A DNA stretch of 64,000 nt from the NCBI RefSeq assembly GCF_053078305.1, contig NZ_CP166879.1; one strand, 5' to 3'. Positions 1 to 64,000 of the stretch are shown in pieces. The position numbers and the translations under genes were made by a program. Below the pieces are notes generated by a model. That model did no database searches. It had not been told where the DNA came from and saw nothing but the letters and a program-made list of their open reading frames with translations. The stretch's first letter is position 1. Each line of letters starts with the position of its first letter.

Positions 1-228
1 CGCCGTAGAAACTTCATTAATGGTGCCATCGCCACCACCGGCAATCACCGTTGCGACGCCCAACTTCCGGGCCTCCTCTACATATCGTGCGGCATCGCCT
101 TTCTCCCAGGTGACCCGCACATGGATCGTCATTCCTTCCTCACGCAACAGCATAATTGCTTCGCGCAATGGTAAATTGTCAGTACTTTTGCCATTAAGAA
201 TCAGTAAGCTGGCGGGAAATTCTGCCAT
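1..228 (-). CDS. yegS: lipid kinase YegS, N-terminal part (gene runs off window start)
   Basis: Minus-strand translation from ATG at 226-228 reads [69 protein letters not shown]...; ORF-track entry 20..259(+) is the antisense shadow. Confidence 0.85.
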
Positions 229-633
229 GATCGTATGTGCCTTTATGATTGGTCTGTAGATAGTGTAGAGCAGAAAAGAAAAGGTGGAGTCAGAACAGGA
301 TGAAAGTCGGAGGATAAATAGTCAGTTCAAGTATGGAGGATTCAGTGGTTACCACCAGGAGCTTGCAATGGGGACAGCGAATACTAACGGCAGCCACCGA
401 TAAATTTCAAAAAAGAGCATATACCTAATATTCAACTAAACAGTGGCATCTTCAATATAATATATTAAAGCCTCCATGGAGTTACCCGGAAGGGCCTCCA
501 TGTCCGTAATTCCTACTTATGTAGGAAATGTTGTACAGAACATTTATTATAATCCTATTCAATTATAATAATCATGCCATTATTATATTTAAACACTAGA
601 GAGTGTCGTTGGTATTTAATGGGGGAAGGTGAG

Positions 634-951
634 GTGAACAAGATAGCTGCTATATCATTAATTAGTGTTTTTCTTATGTCTGGTTGTGCTGTGCATAATG
701 ATGAGACAAGTATCGGTAAATTTGGCCTTGCATATAAAAGTAATATTCAGCGTAAACTCGATAACCAATACTACACCGAAGCCGAAGCTTCTTTAGCCAG
801 GGGCAGAATATCTGGTGCAGAAAATATAGTAAAAAATGATGCAGCCCATTTCTGTGTTACTCAGGGCAAAAAAATGCAGATAGTTGACCTGAAGACAGAA
901 GGTGCAGGATTACATGGCGTCGCTCGTCTGACATTCAAATGTGGAGAGTGA
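634..951 (+). CDS. yegR: YegR small protein (105 aa from GTG at 634 preceded by GAAGGTGAGG; ORF-track frame 574..951)
   Basis: ORF-track protein; signal-peptide/lipobox-like LMSGC near N-terminus; start choice from recalled K-12 length. Confidence 0.7.
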   Translation: MNKIAAISLISVFLMSGCAVHNDETSIGKFGLAYKSNIQRKLDNQYYTEAEASLARGRISGAENIVKNDAAHFCVTQGKKMQIVDLKTEGAGLHGVARLTFKCGE

Positions 952-1109
952 GAATATTTTTTGGTAAGCGTCAAACATGCGCGTTCTGGTTGTGCTTAGC
1001 CGGAACCTGTGCGAGCACGATGCCAATAAGTGAAAGGCATCGTGCTATGAAGGGAAATTCTATCGATGTGGTCAATGGAAGATGGTTACCAGAGATAGGG
1101 CTTATGCAT

Positions 1110-1196
1110 AAAAAATAAGCCCGTGTAAGGGAGATTACACAGGCTAAGGAGGTGGTTCCTGGTACAGCTAGCATTTTATGGGTTATGTTTTTCAGC
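1110..1196 (-). ncRNA. cyaR: CyaR (RyeE) Hfq-dependent sRNA
   Basis: Minus-strand sequence GCTGAAAAACATAACCCATAAAATGCTAGCTGTACCAGGAACCACCTCCTTAGCCTGTGTAATCTCCCTTACACGGGCTTATTTTTT matches recalled CyaR including CCUCCU seed and terminal hairpin plus U-run. Confidence 0.8.
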
Positions 1197-1280
1197 GAAA
1201 CGGATGATAACCTTAATAAATGCAGCTGTATGTGATCGGTTTCTAAGAATTTTCCATCCGGGAAAAATAATCGAAATTAA

Positions 1281-2642
1281 TCACTTACCGTGTGGGTTAC
1301 GCGTGGTTTCCCCGGAGAAATTACGCATCAGCAGAGCGTAATTGAGCTCAAGATCCTGCGGGACCGGGAGCCACACAGTATAACCATCGCCTGGTGCGAC
1401 CGGCATCGCTTCGCCTTTGGCGTTTTCCATATGCTCAAGGGTAAAGTTAATGTTGCCTTGCGGCGTCATCAGCTCAAGGCTGTCGCCAACGGAGAATTTA
1501 TTTTTCACCGCTACCGCCGCGAGGTCCCCCTTGCGCTCACCGGTAAACTCACCAACAAACTGCTGGCGGTCAGAAACCGAATAACCGTATTCGTAGTTCT
1601 GATAATCGTCGTGAGTATGACGACGCAGGAAACCTTCGGTATAGCCACGATGCGCCAGACCTTCCAGAGTTTCCAGCAGGCTGGTATCGAACGGTTTGCC
1701 CGCAGCGGCATCATCGATAGCTTTACGATAAACCTGTGCGGTGCGTGCGCAATAGTAGAAAGATTTAGTACGGCCTTCGATCTTCAGCGAATGCACGCCC
1801 ATTTTGGTCAGGCGCTCAACGTGGGCGATGGCACGCAGATCTTTCGAGTTCATAATGTAAGTGCCGTGTTCGTCTTCAAACGCGGTCATATACTCGCCCG
1901 GACGCTGGGCCTCTTCGATCATAAACACTTTGTCGGTTGGCGCGCCAATACCAAGCGTAGGCTCAACGTTTTGCACCGGAATCGGCTCGTACTTGTGTAC
2001 GATGTTGCCAACGTCATCTTCTTTACCTTCCTGTACGTTGTACTCCCAGCGGCAGGCGTTGGTGCAGGTTCCCTGGTTCGGGTCGCGTTTGTTAATGTAG
2101 CCCGAGAGCAGGCAGCGGCCGGAGTAGGCCATGCACAGTGCGCCGTGAACGAAGATCTCGATCTCCATATCCGGCACCTGATTGCGGATCTCTTCAATCT
2201 CTTCCAGCGACAGCTCGCGAGAGAGGATCACGCGGGTCAGGCCCATTTGCTGCCAGAATTTCACCGTCGCCCAGTTCACGGCGTTAGCCTGTACCGAGAG
2301 ATGGATCGGCATTTCAGGGAAGTGCTCACGCACCAGCATAATCAGCCCTGGATCGGACATAATCAGCGCATCCGGCCCCATTTCCACCACCGGTTTCAGG
2401 TCACGGATAAAGGTTTTCAGCTTGGCGTTGTGCGGTGCAATGTTGACCACGACATAAAACTTTTTCCCCAGCGCGTGGGCTTCATTGATGCCGAGCTGAA
2501 GGTTTTCGTGGTTGAATTCGTTGTTGCGCACACGCAGGGAGTAACGCGGCTGGCCCGCATAAACAGCATCTGCGCCATAAGCGAAAGCGTAACGCATATT
2601 TTTCAGCGTTCCCGCCGGGGAAAGGAGTTCCGGTTTAAACAT
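1281..2642 (-). CDS. yegQ: peptidase U32-family protein YegQ/TrhP (tRNA hydroxylation)
   Basis: 453-aa ORF, MFKPELLSPAGTLKNMRYAFAYGADAVYAGQPRYSLR...; 1290..2684(+) is an antisense shadow ORF. Confidence 0.9.
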   Translation of the reverse strand: MFKPELLSPAGTLKNMRYAFAYGADAVYAGQPRYSLRVRNNEFNHENLQLGINEAHALGKKFYVVVNIAPHNAKLKTFIRDLKPVVEMGPDALIMSDPGLIMLVREHFPEMPIHLSVQANAVNWATVKFWQQMGLTRVILSRELSLEEIEEIRNQVPDMEIEIFVHGALCMAYSGRCLLSGYINKRDPNQGTCTNACRWEYNVQEGKEDDVGNIVHKYEPIPVQNVEPTLGIGAPTDKVFMIEEAQRPGEYMTAFEDEHGTYIMNSKDLRAIAHVERLTKMGVHSLKIEGRTKSFYYCARTAQVYRKAIDDAAAGKPFDTSLLETLEGLAHRGYTEGFLRRHTHDDYQNYEYGYSVSDRQQFVGEFTGERKGDLAAVAVKNKFSVGDSLELMTPQGNINFTLEHMENAKGEAMPVAPGDGYTVWLPVPQDLELNYALLMRNFSGETTRNPHGK

Positions 2643-2744
2643 AATTCTCTCGTTCTGATGACAGGTCAGATCCGCTTCACCTGATGAAGCGGTTAGGGGA
2701 GTGCCCCCACTTTAAGGGCGGGCATTGTAGCGCAATCGGCGGGT

Positions 2745-3041
2745 TTAGCTCCAGTGTAAATGTCTGGTGGCGTCCTGGTTTTGGTTAAGGATACGAATGA
2801 CGATAATTTCCCCTGGTGATTGCAGGAAATAAATTACGTGGCGTTCAAAAGGAAGAACAAAAATACCTTCGCCTAATTCAGGTCTGGGCGTACCTATATT
2901 ATTGTTACTCAGAATCTGGAGAACGTCTGAAAGATGTTCCACATATCTGTCGGCTTGTGGTTCGCCGAAATGGTGATAACTGTAATACCAGATGCCTTCT
3001 AAATCCTCATTGGCTTTTGGCATGAGTTTAATAATACGCAC
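2745..3041 (-). CDS. ParE/RelE-family type II toxin
   Basis: 98-aa ORF; ParE-like pattern ...ANEDLEGIWYYS...ADRYV...FERHVIYF...EIIVIRILNQNQDATRHL; starts 1 nt after antitoxin stop. Confidence 0.8.
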   Translation of the reverse strand: MRIIKLMPKANEDLEGIWYYSYHHFGEPQADRYVEHLSDVLQILSNNNIGTPRPELGEGIFVLPFERHVIYFLQSPGEIIVIRILNQNQDATRHLHWS

Positions 3042-3042
3042 A

Positions 3043-3294
3043 TTATTTCCTTATCCCTGCTTTCACCTTCCGTAAAAACGCGTCCTTTTCCCACGGCTGA
3101 GCTTCACCACTACTCAACCCTTCTGCAAGCATGTCACGTAATGCTTGCAGGCGAGACTCTGCTTGCTTTTCTCGAAGTAAGCGCAGTGACTCACGGATCA
3201 CTTCGCTTTGGGTGCGATAGTCGCCGGATTCAATTAAGGACTCGATAAATTCACGCAACTCATCGCCGAGATCAACCGTCATCGTTCTGGCCAT
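3043..3294 (-). CDS. ParD-family antitoxin (RHH/CopG-like DNA-binding)
   Basis: 83-aa ORF MARTMTVDLGDELREFIESLIESGDYRTQSEVIRESLRLLREKQ...; AGGAGA RBS upstream; immediately upstream of toxin. Confidence 0.8.
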   Translation of the reverse strand: MARTMTVDLGDELREFIESLIESGDYRTQSEVIRESLRLLREKQAESRLQALRDMLAEGLSSGEAQPWEKDAFLRKVKAGIRK

Positions 3295-3308
3295 GTTTAT
3301 GCTCTCCT

Positions 3309-3326
3309 GTAAGTAAAAATCTTACA
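3309..3326. promoter_or_regulatory. palindrome TGTAAG-N6-CTTACA just upstream of parD start, candidate autoregulatory operator
   Basis: Inverted repeat read directly at 3309-3314 / 3321-3326. Confidence 0.3.
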
Positions 3327-3537
3327 TCAGTGTATGTCATAAACCGGATAGCGTCACGAAAAGTATTAGAAGATATTTTGGCAGATGAACATGTTCAGGA
3401 GGATAAGCATGGAGATGTTAAACAAAGAAAGCACAATGAGTATTCATCAGTGTCCACTATTTTAATGGCGCAGGTAAATAAATAAGCGTTATTTGGAAAT
3501 AAAGCCGGACGCCAACAACCCACGCCCGGCATCGTAA

Positions 3538-15114: not shown

Positions 15115-15284
15115 TGGAGGAATTATGAAACACTGTCGGGAATCGTCTGAATGGCGGGCACATTTGCGAGCACGCATCCAGTAATAACACAGGAAACTAT
15201 TTTATCTACGCGTTAGCGATAGACTGCATGCATGGCGAAAGGAGGTAAGCCGACGATTTCAGCGGGATGCTGAAACGGGAAAGC

Positions 15285-15425
15285 CCCTCCCGAGGAAGGG
15301 GTCTTAAATAAGGAAAGGGTCATGATGAAGATACTCATCATCGTGGTGCTCTTAGTGATTAGCTACCCAGCATACTAAGACTACCAGGGCGGGGGAAACC
15401 CCGCTCTACCCTCACTCCTGAAAGT
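15285..15425 (-). ncRNA. Sib antisense sRNA (antitoxin) copy 1, boundaries approximate
   Basis: Inferred from Ibs/Sib architecture: antisense RNA covering ibs ORF and 5' UTR; boundaries not determinable by eye. Confidence 0.4.
15322..15378 (+). CDS. ibsB: Ibs-family type I toxin peptide (MMKILIIVVLLVISYPAY), IbsB-like
   Basis: ATGATGAAG...TACTAA with AGGAAAGGG RBS; not in ORF track (under 60 aa). Confidence 0.7.
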   Translation: MMKILIIVVLLVISYPAY

Positions 15426-15612
15426 ATGCCTTCACGTTCAGAATGTCAATCCGCAGGCTTTGCAGTCTGCGATCCTGCCAGCAAATATTCTTTGCGAGAC
15501 GTTACGCAATAATAACACAGGAAACTATTTTATCTACGCGTTAGCGATAGACTGAATTCAGGGCGAAAGGAGGTAAGCCGACGATTTCAGCGGGACGCTG
15601 AAACGGGAAAGC

Positions 15613-15753
15613 CCCTCCCGAGGAAGGGGCCTTAAATAAGGAAAGGGTCATGATGAAGTGGATCATCATCGTGGTGCGCTTAGTCATAAGCTTCCCGGCT
15701 TACTAAGACTACCAGGGCGGGGGAAACCCCGCTCTACCCTCACTCCTGAAAGT
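15613..15753 (-). ncRNA. Sib antisense sRNA copy 2, boundaries approximate
   Basis: As copy 1. Confidence 0.4.
15650..15706 (+). CDS. Ibs-family peptide variant (MMKWIIIVVRLVISFPAY) with Arg inside the hydrophobic core
   Basis: Same repeat position and RBS as copies 1 and 3; charged substitution may impair toxicity. Confidence 0.55.
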   Translation: MMKWIIIVVRLVISFPAY

Positions 15754-15941
15754 ATGCCTTCACGATAAGATTGTCAATCTGCAGGCTTTGCAGTCTGCGA
15801 TCCTGCCAGCAAATATTCTTTGCGAGTCGTTACGCAATAATCATAGAGGGAACTATTTTGTTCACGCGTTAGCGATAGACTGCATTCAGGGCGAAAGGAG
15901 GTAAGCCGACGATTTCAGCGGGACGCTGAAACGGGAAACAC

Positions 15942-16085
15942 TCTCCCGGAGAAGAGGGCTTTTAATAAGGAAAGGGTTATGATGAAGCACGTCATCATAC
16001 TGGTGATACTCTTGGTGATTAGCTTCCAGGCTTACTAAGAACACCAGGGGGAGGGGGAAACCTCTCCCTAACCCTCACTCCTGAA
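15942..16085 (-). ncRNA. Sib antisense sRNA copy 3, boundaries approximate
   Basis: As copy 1. Confidence 0.4.
15979..16038 (+). CDS. ibsA: Ibs-family type I toxin peptide (MMKHVIILVILLVISFQAY), IbsA-like
   Basis: One substitution vs recalled IbsA MMKHVIILVILLVISFPAY. Confidence 0.7.
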   Translation: MMKHVIILVILLVISFQAY

Positions 16086-16258
16086 ATTATGTCACTCCGC
16101 CCTTAGTGTCAATCGACGGCTCTCCGTTCTTGCGAGGCGAATAGCAAAATTTTCTGCGCCGCCGGGCCTAATTCTGAAAGTTTCTTCGTTTGCTCTTATT
16201 TCATTATTGCAATCGGTATGATACCGGACCTCAATAATTCTCTAAGAAAGGATTTCTT

Positions 16259-16918: not shown

Positions 16919-17676
16919 GCTGGCGTCTGGTTTATGCATCCGCTGTTGGAACGTCGCACATTAGCGCTGATTTACCTTGTCAGGATGCCTGCCAGATGCA
17001 GGTTGCCTGGCTAAATGACCAGCAGCCATTACTGGTGATGTTCCTTGCTGATGGCGCAGGCAGTGTCTCGCAGGGTGGCGAAGGCGCGATGCTTGCCATC
17101 AATGAAGCGATGGCTTATGTGTCGCAAAAAGTGCAGCACGGTGAATTTGGACTCAATGATATCCTCGCCACGGATATTGTGCTGACCGTTCGTCAGCGAC
17201 TTTTTGCCGAGGCAGAAGCCAAAGCATTAGCAGTTCGCGATTTTGCCTGCACGTTTCTGGGATTGATTTCATCGGCTAACGGCACCTTGATTATGCAAAT
17301 TGGCGACGGCGGTGTAGTGGTGGATTTTGGTCGTGGTCTGGAACTGCCGCTTACGCCGATGGTGGGTGAATATGCCAATATGACGCATTTCATTAGCGAT
17401 GAAGATGCTGTTTCCAGACTGGAAACTTTCACCAGCACTGAGCGTGCGCATAAAGTTGCAGCATTTACGGATGGTATTCAGCGACTGGCGTTAAATATGC
17501 TGGATAATTCTCCGCATGTGCCTTTCTTTACCCCGTTTTTCAATGGACTGGCGGCAGCAACGCAGGAACAACTCGATTTATTACCTGAATTGTTAAAGCA
17601 GTTTTTGTCGAGCCCGGCGGTAAACGAGCGTACCGATGATGATAAAACGTTGGCACTGGCGCTGTGGTTACCATGA
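16915..17676 (+). CDS. yegK: PP2C-family Ser/Thr phosphatase YegK
   Basis: 253-aa [10 protein letters not shown]...GGEGA / IGDGG motifs; 4-bp overlap with yegL. Confidence 0.9.
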
Positions 17677-19613
17677 AACCCACTTTATATACTGCTACTG
17701 GTGAGTGCATTACGCCAGGCCGTGAACTGGGCAAAGGTGGCGAAGGCGCGGTTTATGATATCAATGAGTTTGTCGATAGCGTCGCCAAGATTTATCACAC
17801 GCCGCCACCCGCCTTAAAACAGGACAAACTTGCCTTTATGGCTGCGACAGCTGACGCGCAGTTGTTGAATTATGTCGCCTGGCCGCAGGCAACGCTTCAC
17901 GGTGGACGAGGCGGAAAAGTTATCGGTTTTATGATGCCAAAAGTTTCTGGTAAAGAACCGATTCATATGATCTATAGCCCGGCACATCGTCGCCAGAGTT
18001 ACCCTCATTGTGCGTGGGATTTTCTACTCTATGTTGCGCGCAATATTGCTTCATCTTTTGCTACGGTTCACGAGCACGGGCACGTCGTGGGTGACGTAAA
18101 CCAGAACAGCTTTATGGTAGGTCGCGACAGCAAAGTGGTGTTGATTGATAGCGACTCCTTTCAGATTAACGCTAATGGCACGTTGCATTTATGCGAAGTT
18201 GGCGTGTCGCATTTTACGCCGCCAGAGCTACAAACCTTGCCATCATTTGTCGGCTTTGAACGCACCGCGAATCACGATAATTTTGGCCTTGCGTTGCTGA
18301 TTTTTCACGTCTTGTTTGGTGGGCGGCATCCTTATTCTGGTGTGCCGCTTATCTCTGATGCGGGTAATGCGCTGGAGACGGATATTGCCCATTTCCGTTA
18401 TGCCTACGCGTCAGATAATCAGCGGCGTGGTTTAAAACCGCCGCCACGATCTATTCCGCTGTCGATGTTACCGGGCGATGTTGAAGCCATGTTTCAGCAG
18501 GCATTCACGGAAAGTGGCGTGGCAACGGGGCGTCCGACGGCTAAAGCGTGGGTAGCGGCACTGGACTCTCTACGCCAACAGTTAAAGAAATGTACCGTTT
18601 CAGCAATGCATGTTTACCCCGCTCATTTGACTGATTGCCCGTGGTGTACGCTGGATAATCAAGGCGTTATCTATTTTATTGATCTCGGCGAAGAGGTCAT
18701 TACCACCAGTGGTGATTTTGTGCTGGCGAAAGTCTGGGCGATGGTGATGGCGTCAGTAGCACCGCCAGCATTGCAATTGCCATTACCCGATCATTTCCAA
18801 CCGACTGGCAGGCCGCTTCCTTTAGGCCTGTTACGGCGCGAATACATCATTCTGATTGAGATCGCACTGTCAGCGTTATCGCTGTTGCTTTGCGGCCTTC
18901 AGGCAGAACCGCGTTATATTATTTTGGTTCCTGTGCTGGCGGCTATCTGGATTATTGGCAGTCTGACAAGCAAAGCTTATAAAGCAGAAATCCAGCAACG
19001 CCGTGAGGCATTTAATCGCGCGAAAATGGACTATGACCATTTAGTCAGCCAGATCCAACAGTTGGGCGGGCTGGAAGGTTTTATCGCCAAACGGACGATG
19101 CTCGAAAAAATGAAGGACGAAATGCTCGGGTTACCGGAAGAAGAAAAACGTGCTCTGGCAGCACTTCACGACACCGCAAGGGAACGGCAGAAGCAGAAGT
19201 TTCTGGAGGGATTTTTTATTGATGTTGCCTCTATTCCCGGCGTTGGCCCTGCGCGTAAAGCGGCGTTACGGTCCTTTGGTATTGAAACAGCAGCGGATGT
19301 TACCCGTCGTGGGGTTAAGCAAGTGAAAGGGTTTGGTGATCATCTGACCCAGGCAGTTATCGACTGGAAAGCAAGTTGCGAACGCCGTTTTGTGTTCAGG
19401 CCGAATGAAGCGGTAACGCCAGCAGACAGACAAGCGGTAATGGCGAAAATGACCGCCAAACGACATCGGCTGGAATCGACGTTGACTGTCGGCGCGACAG
19501 AGTTGCAGCGATTTCGCCTTCATGCTCCAGCACGGACCATGCCGTTGATGGAACCTTTACGTCAGGCGGCAGAAAAACTGGCTCAGGCGCAAGCAGATTT
19601 AAGCCGCTGCTGA
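17664..19613 (+). CDS. yegI: atypical Ser/Thr protein kinase YegI
   Basis: 649-aa ORF; kinase-like N-terminal domain (HGHVVGDVNQNS, IDSDSF), C-terminal TM and coiled-coil region; 13-bp overlap with yegK. Confidence 0.9.
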   Translation: MVTMKPTLYTATGECITPGRELGKGGEGAVYDINEFVDSVAKIYHTPPPALKQDKLAFMAATADAQLLNYVAWPQATLHGGRGGKVIGFMMPKVSGKEPIHMIYSPAHRRQSYPHCAWDFLLYVARNIASSFATVHEHGHVVGDVNQNSFMVGRDSKVVLIDSDSFQINANGTLHLCEVGVSHFTPPELQTLPSFVGFERTANHDNFGLALLIFHVLFGGRHPYSGVPLISDAGNALETDIAHFRYAYASDNQRRGLKPPPRSIPLSMLPGDVEAMFQQAFTESGVATGRPTAKAWVAALDSLRQQLKKCTVSAMHVYPAHLTDCPWCTLDNQGVIYFIDLGEEVITTSGDFVLAKVWAMVMASVAPPALQLPLPDHFQPTGRPLPLGLLRREYIILIEIALSALSLLLCGLQAEPRYIILVPVLAAIWIIGSLTSKAYKAEIQQRREAFNRAKMDYDHLVSQIQQLGGLEGFIAKRTMLEKMKDEMLGLPEEEKRALAALHDTARERQKQKFLEGFFIDVASIPGVGPARKAALRSFGIETAADVTRRGVKQVKGFGDHLTQAVIDWKASCERRFVFRPNEAVTPADRQAVMAKMTAKRHRLESTLTVGATELQRFRLHAPARTMPLMEPLRQAAEKLAQAQADLSRC

Positions 19614-29335: not shown

Positions 29336-30301
29336 TCACACCTCGTACTCCATCTCGCCATCCTTACGCAGCGGTATAATCTGCACCTTCTGCACGCGAT
29401 GGCTTTCTACCTGCAACGTTTTAAGCAAATAATCCCCCACCTGAACTTCTTCGCCAGGTTTTGGAATACGCTGCAAATATTCCATCAACAGCCCGGCAAT
29501 GGTGTGATATTCACGTTTTTCATCCAGCGGCAGCGGCACATATTGCACCAGATCCTCCAGCGGCATATGACCATTCGCCGTCCAGGAACCGTCCGCATTC
29601 TTCTGAATATCATGGCGGGCGTCGATCTCTTCCACTTCGTTCGGTAAGTTACCGGCAATGGTTTCAGTGACGTCACTTAATGTCACAATCCCTTCCACCG
29701 AGCCAAACTCATCCACCACAAAAGCAAAGTGCGTGCGGGCATTACGGAACTGCTCCAGGGCAGGTAACAACGGCAAGGTTTCCGGGAACACCAGCGGCTG
29801 GCGAATCAACACCCGCAGGTTGAGCGGTTCGCCACGCAGAGACTGTTGTAGCAGGTCGATAACGTGAACAACACCGAGCAAATCTTCTGCGTCATCGCCA
29901 TCAGTAACCACCAGCCGCGTATGCTGATTTCGCTCCAGTAACTGGCGGATCTCGTCTTCCGGCGCGTTGAGATCGATATGCTCAATATCGTGGCGCGACG
30001 TCATAATGCTGCTGACGGTACGCTGGTTAAGATTAAGTACCCGCTCAATCATCCGCCGTTCCTGCGGATTAAAGATCTGCTGGTTACCATGATCCACCAG
30101 CATGGACGCGGTTTCGGCGTCCAGTTCCGCATCTTCTTTTTGCCCGCTAAGCAGGCGCATTACCGCTTCGGTAGTCCGCTGGCGCAGCGTCTGGTTAGCG
30201 GAAAGAAAACGTCGCCGGTTAAAGATAGCCAACTGATTGAGCGCCTCGATCATCACCGAGAAACCAATAGCAGCGTACAGGTAGCCTTTCGGAATGACGA
30301 A
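29336..30301 (-). pseudogene. yegH: yegH (TerC-CBS-CorC membrane protein) 3' fragment, truncated by prophage insertion
   Basis: Frame encodes ...GFVIPKGYLYAAIGFSVMIEALNQ... through C-terminus (~321 aa); upstream of 30301 the frame hits a stop and sequence becomes AT-rich prophage-end DNA. Confidence 0.8.
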
Positions 30302-63514: not shown

Positions 63515-64000
63515 GGCATTAACTCCCGTAATACAACATCTTCGGCAGTCCGGCGATGGTGATAAATAAAATTCACCGTACTCTCGGATAATTCAAATTT
63601 CTCGCCTATTTCCCGGAAGGTAATACGTCGTGGCGATTCAGCATCCCGTAATTCACGAATAAGACGAACATCATCGTCAGGTATACGGGTGAAGGGCAGC
63701 AATTCACCACACTTTTTTAAGCTGACGCCAGTCACTCGTGCCCGGCAGCGGATGCTGTCATGATGTCGCCCGAGATACTCCCCCATTTGCCTGCTGGTCA
63801 TCGTTCTGGCATTTTTTCGGATAAATTTATCTTCATCAGGTTTAAATCTGGGGCGTTTGCATTTGAGCAACTCCGGGTAAGTACCGCGTAATAAAACAAT
63901 CCGGTTATATACACCCCAGAAACTTCTTTTTACCCTGACAGCAATATCCTTAACCGGGGTGGATGGATAAAGCGCAATCAGCAGTGCATCTTCTTCAGGT
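63511..64000 (-). CDS. HTH-containing early-region protein, 5' end beyond window
   Basis: Frame stays open from 63870 to window end (...PEEDALLIALYPSTPVKDIAVRVKRSFWGVYNRIVLLRGTYPELLKCKRPRF...); ORF-track start at 63870 is an internal TTG. Confidence 0.45.
   Translation of the reverse strand, partial: PEEDALLIALYPSTPVKDIAVRVKRSFWGVYNRIVLLRGTYPELLKCKRPRFKPDEDKFIRKNARTMTSRQMGEYLGRHHDSIRCRARVTGVSLKKCGELLPFTRIPDDDVRLIRELRDAESPRRITFREIGEKFELSESTVNFIYHHRRTAEDVVLRELMP

Follow-up and report, generated by a model that had tools for sequence, protein, structure and literature searches.

Results

Organisation of the yegS-yegR-cyaR-trhP locus

The stretch of DNA analysed here (64 kb, the window) is E. 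coli chromosome and runs in the orientation opposite to that of K-12. Its left end carries the 5′ part of the lipid kinase gene yegS (1-228, minus strand), identified by tblastn and translation and by the annotation of strain PS10-3; this end aligns collinearly with K-12 from MG1655 position 2168939 downward. The gene yegR is located at 634-951 on the plus strand, as an open reading frame that is annotated in the near-identical strain PS10-3 and bears the name ('yegR' or 'lipoprotein YegR') in many genomes. It has ~39% G+C and encodes a predicted lipoprotein of 105 amino acids, which matched no Pfam family. The small RNA gene cyaR (ryeE) lies on the minus strand, at 1113-1198 according to Rfam (RF00112) and at 1110-1196 by transfer of the K-12 annotation (b4438). 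The Rfam match is full length (model positions 1-85 of 85) and scores 100.7 bits against a gathering threshold of 47. The open reading frame and annotations place trhP (yegQ), the gene for a tRNA uridine-34 hydroxylase, at 1281-2642 on the minus strand. yegS and trhP are thus the left and right synteny anchors of the locus.

The interval from the yegR stop codon (951) to the 3′ end of cyaR measures 158-161 bp, with the cyaR end taken from Rfam or from the K-12 transfer, in line with the ~160 bp given in the original prediction. Within this spacer sits an inverted repeat (1014-1046, strandless) with perfect 11-bp arms and an 11-nt loop, 63 nt 3′ of yegR, that is kept in K-12, M160133 and MOD1-EC7003. 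A T-run is absent on both strands, and a terminator scan made no call at this position. The hairpin was considered as a terminator of yegR or as a counterpart of the phage ogr terminator, and was rejected in both roles, as both a T-run and sequence similarity are absent.

Several other parts of the window differ from K-12. Between trhP/yegQ and yegP lie ~770 bp (2734-3503) that are absent from K-12. Open reading frames for a ParE toxin (2745-3041; Pfam PF05016, 1.8e-13) and a ParD antitoxin (3043-3294; PF03693, 4.3e-19) are found here, both on the minus strand; PS10-3 carries the same pair, with the antitoxin marked as frameshifted. The ibs/sib type I toxin-antitoxin repeats at ~15160-16100 number three, against two in K-12 (sibA/ibsA and sibB/ibsB), as judged from internal repeats in the BLAST comparison and from three Ibs toxin genes in the PS10-3 annotation. 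About 50 bp (17667-17718) take the place of the K-12 yegJ region (~786 bp, 2150934-2151720); yegJ is apparently absent and pphC abuts yegI, as in PS10-3. Collinearity with both K-12 and PS10-3 stops at 30301, inside yegH (junction ~30301/30302). From 30302 onward the sequence matches the Mu-like prophage genes of STEC genomes (Mom, Com, Gin-type recombinase and tail-fibre region), which in Stx-phage records are annotated 'inserted Bacteriophage Mu-like phage'. Within the searched part (window 30302-55000), 74% aligns at ~86% identity. The yegH gene seems to be interrupted by a Mu-like transposable prophage that reaches at least as far as the window end at 64000.

The 3′ end of cyaR contains the P2 attachment core

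The intrinsic terminator of CyaR occupies 1118-1145 on the minus strand. It consists of a hairpin with an 11-bp stem and a 6-nt loop, followed by a U tail, and was found by the terminator scan, as an inverted-repeat pair and in the Rfam structure line. The original prediction had proposed a comparison with P2 attB sequences, and it is in this terminator that the comparison found its match: window 1110-1136 (plus strand), AAAAAATAAGCCCGTGTAAGGGAGATT, is identical at 27 of 27 positions to AF063097 24356-24382, the P2 segment annotated 'attP' and 'Int attP core'. These are the last 27 nt of cyaR and comprise the terminator loop, its 3′ arm and the U tail. The match is the only one in 64 kb even when three mismatches are permitted, against a chance expectation of 0. 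A tblastn search with P2 Int, Ogr and the C-terminal part of D found no homologue in the 64-kb window. The fully matching core and the absence of these P2 genes together mark 1110-1136 as an intact, unoccupied attB at the preferred site of P2. The site had been predicted to be empty, and the contiguous yegR and cyaR, the intact core and the lack of P2 genes bear this out.

The preferred site of P2 in E. coli C is named locI in the P2 literature. Its primary papers are reportedly those of Yu et al. from 1989 and of Barreiro and Haggard-Ljungquist from 1992, the latter said to hold the original description of the K-12 remnant as well. We take the offset from an older MG1655 coordinate version to the current one to be about +1978 bp, which places the older position 2165238 beside the 3′ end of cyaR, inside the region annotated as PR-X in K-12. 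Read through this offset, the mapped E. coli C site agrees in position with the core found in the window. The older coordinate itself, MG1655 2165238, is that listed for P2 integration in E. coli C (Nilsson et al. 2011, Table 1, PMC3448106), and ryeE (cyaR) has been described as 'previously known to be targeted by phages' (Bobay et al. 2013, PMC3603311). These two were the only informative papers in a literature search on the P2 site at cyaR, the older primary papers on P2 att sites being outside its reach.

K-12 carries additional P2-derived DNA at the site

A local BLAST of the window against K-12 returned two collinear alignments (96.6-97.5% identity) that overlap at window 1102-1127, with ~630 bp extra in K-12 between them. 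K-12 was thus not found to have an equally short interval, the result that would have told against the original prediction. In MG1655, cyaR is located at 2167114-2167200 and yegR at 2167989-2168306. The annotation places 'cryptic prophage PR-X' (2167183-2167811, 629 bp), comprising ogrK and the pseudogene yegZ, between them, just where the original prediction had placed these two genes. Aligned to the phage, the K-12 remnant extends over 641 bp with 96.7% identity to P2 23742-24382. It contains the last 213 bp of D (yegZ), ogr (ogrK), the ogr terminator, the Int P arm, the IHF site and the complete attP core, and it ends with an 18-bp partial second core that adjoins the spacer on the yegR side. 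By this likeness to P2, K-12 holds the right end of a decayed P2-like prophage at cyaR. Since it lacks int, cox and a full second core, the remnant would be fixed in place and incapable of self-excision. The ogr homologue and D′ fragment that characterise PR-X are both missing between cyaR and yegR in the window; the empty Ogr and D searches and the ~630 bp absent relative to K-12 confirm that this strain is without the ogrK/yegZ remnant. The sequence of cyaR itself is the same in K-12 and in the window strain.

Occupancy of the site in E. coli

The contiguous (empty) arrangement, defined as a match covering at least 80% of window 500-1400, is the majority state, being found in 4565 of 5426 complete E. 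coli genomes (84%). The K-12-type remnant is present in 360 (6.6%). By subtraction ~500 genomes are in other states, in which the region was matched and is neither contiguous nor of K-12 type; this class takes in full-length P2-like prophages at the cyaR site. The empty P2 site at cyaR is a common and already documented state.

In FDAARGOS_1371 the core 27-mer occurs twice, at 3426 and 38366 of the extracted locus (L021), ~35 kb apart, and bounds a P2-like prophage. The order is yegS, yegR, core, int-C-cox ... D-ogr, core, (cyaR), yegQ, showing a P2-type prophage inserted here between direct repeats of the core. The attL and attR junction halves are also found in ON470606 and in two metagenomic contigs (L010 and L013); tblastn with the P2 proteins detected Int at 99.7% in L010 and Ogr at 100% in L013. 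AY639599 ('phage TP') was considered as a further example of an occupied site and rejected, as the record is a K-12-type remnant. A different rearrangement is seen in E. coli E69 (CP089930; L009 2447-2560), where ~8 nt separate the att core from sequence taken from immediately upstream of yegS. The deletion removes yegR and the entire spacer and has one of its ends at the core boundary, which suggests that it is a prophage-associated deletion at this hot spot.

The core in other genera

Scanning one genome per species for the exact core identified 11 loci (E. albertii and E. fergusonii were not among them), and at 10 of these the core is the 3′ end of cyaR. Kluyvera ascorbata, cryocrescens, sichuanensis and georgiana share the arrangement trhP-cyaR-(~0.8-1 kb)-yegS with an identical core, and all four have neither P2 genes nor a yegR homologue. 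In K. ascorbata the space between cyaR and yegS is filled by a toxin-antitoxin-like gene pair. K. intermedia has a genuine P2-like attR beside cyaR, 122 bp long and 81% identical to the P2 terminator, P arm, IHF site and core. Both arm repeats are present in this attR and apparent portal/terminase gene fragments lie upstream (L017 1-999); ogr and D were not detected within these 999 bp. The pattern suggests that another genus holds a P2-like remnant rearranged in a different way. The identical core at cyaR in Kluyvera, taken with the K. intermedia attR, makes the cyaR terminator a P2-family attachment site across genera.

A P-arm-like sequence on the yegR side of the core

Window 1063-1097 (plus strand) aligns locally to P2 24293-24328 with a score of 33, against 15.1 ± 2.3 for dinucleotide shuffles, none of which reached 33 in 1000. 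The alignment spans ~35 nt with 27 of 36 identities (~70-75% identity to P2) and includes an exact 15-mer, TCGATGTGGTCAATG, in common with the P2 P arm. The 15-mer holds one Int arm-type repeat, TGTGGTCA, at 1067-1074 (the P2 Int arm consensus is tgTGGaCa; PMC3448106), and it is followed by an ACCAGA-ATA block that is also common to both sequences. The other arm repeat is degenerate, and the window does not show the two arm repeats and IHF site at the right distance from the core that make up a complete P arm. Most E. coli, including the window strain and K-12, have a 16-20-bp deletion in the IHF-site region. Longer collinear versions that include this region occur in Escherichia sp. MOD1-EC7003 (score 47) and E. 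coli M160133 (score 39), whilst in the flanks of the four Kluyvera species P-arm alignments score at background. By this alignment 1063-1097 is homologous to the P2 P arm, though incomplete, and is designated here a degenerate fossil of a P2-type attP P arm. The case becomes stronger only when the longer MOD1-EC7003 and M160133 forms are included.

Discussion

We consider it very probable (about 0.93) that window 951-1281 shows the E. coli yegR-cyaR-trhP locus in its normal, unoccupied state, in which the last 27 nt of cyaR would serve as the attachment site of P2 and its close relatives and the flank would be an old, degenerate P arm.

Arm repeats are found in P2-type attP sites generally, irrespective of the integration target, and for this reason the simplest reading of the sequence at 1063-1097 is that an ancient P2-like prophage entered the Escherichia lineage at cyaR and was later lost almost entirely, leaving its attR (P arm, IHF site and core). 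We lean towards the view that the 'empty' attB is itself an attR scar left by a much older P2-like prophage, with the 35-70 bp that adjoin the core towards yegR being a decayed P arm and IHF region; K-12 would then contain two nested generations of remnant. A P2-type phage probably visited the cyaR locus long before the K-12 remnant arose, and we infer that the transfer ran from phage to chromosome. The original prediction had called the empty arrangement ancestral. As a statement about gene order this stands, since four Kluyvera species have the core without P2 genes and, in addition, 84% of complete E. coli genomes are contiguous. It does not extend to the flank itself, where 1063-1097 resembles an old P2 P arm. 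The fossil P arm is the one point that may be mildly new. yegR was at one stage considered as cargo of the ancient prophage, in view of its ogr/D-like position and orientation and its AT-rich composition. This was dropped, as yegR appears in phage records only as host flank and its product belongs to no Pfam family.

A lineage that never hosted a P2-type element here, with all DNA between yegR and cyaR being original chromosome, would agree with the empty form being the majority state in E. coli and with the Kluyvera species that have trhP-cyaR-yegS and the exact core without P2 genes. It is harder to reconcile with an alignment of 1063-1097 to the P2 P arm that lies far above shuffled sequence, with the longer collinear flanks of MOD1-EC7003 and M160133 that take in the IHF-site region, and with the lack of P-arm similarity in the Kluyvera flanks. 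We regard such a pristine history as rather unlikely.

Less likely still is that the site was emptied secondarily: a recent P2-like prophage or PR-X-type remnant in an ancestor would have been cut out precisely by Int/Cox, or an empty allele would have replaced it through homologous recombination. As Int/Cox excision leaves attB exactly as it was before, sequence cannot separate a site never occupied from one cleanly excised; the locus is moreover a hot spot with several states in E. coli, and the E69 deletion ends at the core. Positive evidence for such a loss is absent, however, and a remnant like that of K-12, without int, cox and a complete second core, could not excise itself. The nearest relatives among the matches listed (such as PS10-3, 99.6%) are also contiguous and insert-free. 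That the likeness to attP merely reflects the cyaR terminator, without a functional attachment site in this strain, seems scarcely credible: terminator hairpins are common sequence motifs, but the core agrees with attP over all 27 positions, where chance would give 0 matches, other E. coli have complete P2-like prophages bounded by the same 27-mer at this very locus, and the published P2 integration site maps here.

The integrase of P2 is a tyrosine recombinase that acts with IHF, and excision also needs Cox. Extending what is known of P2 to this locus, we propose that Int and IHF would pair the 27-bp attP core with the identical chromosomal core and exchange strands inside it. The prophage would land between cyaR and yegR, flanked on each side by a copy of the core. 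As the phage core is identical over the full 27 nt, cyaR would be rebuilt intact after integration. Observations in support of this scheme are (i) the identity of the cores; (ii) the duplication of the core around prophages elsewhere; (iii) the unchanged cyaR in K-12, which bears phage DNA. Of the flank towards yegR, the 35-47 bp next to the core would be the degenerate P arm of a much older P2-type element, and the 'empty' site most likely descends from an ancient attR after near-total deletion of the earlier prophage.

The practical meaning of the empty site is small. Judged from the core, P2-type phages should be able to lysogenise this strain, which is without ogrK, at their preferred site. 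With or without a prophage CyaR would stay the same, since its terminator is rebuilt from the phage core. The locus is a textbook case of phage integration at the 3′ end of an sRNA gene, and E. coli alone shows it in several states of occupancy. If the flank is indeed a fossil P arm, each new P2 prophage at this site would receive an attL composed of fossil P arm, core and P′ arm, which might affect integration preference or aberrant excision. The fossil further suggests that P2 has repeatedly integrated and decayed at cyaR over a long span of time.

The closest known counterpart is the P2 attB of E. coli C (locI), with the same 27/27 core, the same position between trhP/yegQ-cyaR and yegR and the same unoccupied state. 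Nothing substantive differs, as judged from the P2 attP core and the mapped coordinate. PR-X of K-12 shares the locus and the att core, and its cyaR, yegR spacer and both flanks are identical or nearly so; it differs by ~630 bp of P2-derived DNA (D′ fragment, ogr, terminator, P arm, IHF site and partial second core) found only in K-12. In integration at the 3′ ends of tRNA, tmRNA and sRNA genes, such as ryeB/sdsR in Salmonella and ssrA for Fels-2 and SopE-phi, the core likewise overlaps a 3′ hairpin and tail and the phage copy rebuilds the gene. The cyaR site differs from the tRNA/tmRNA-type targets in that it is the terminator of an Hfq-dependent sRNA and not tRNA-like, with a short block of identity (27 bp). 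With attR scars of the lambda type (P-O-B′), window 1063-1136 has in common that it seems to keep the order of a P2 attR, namely arm-type site, (IHF region), core and host gene. Unlike them it is highly degenerate, with one arm repeat lost, the IHF region deleted and no phage gene attached.
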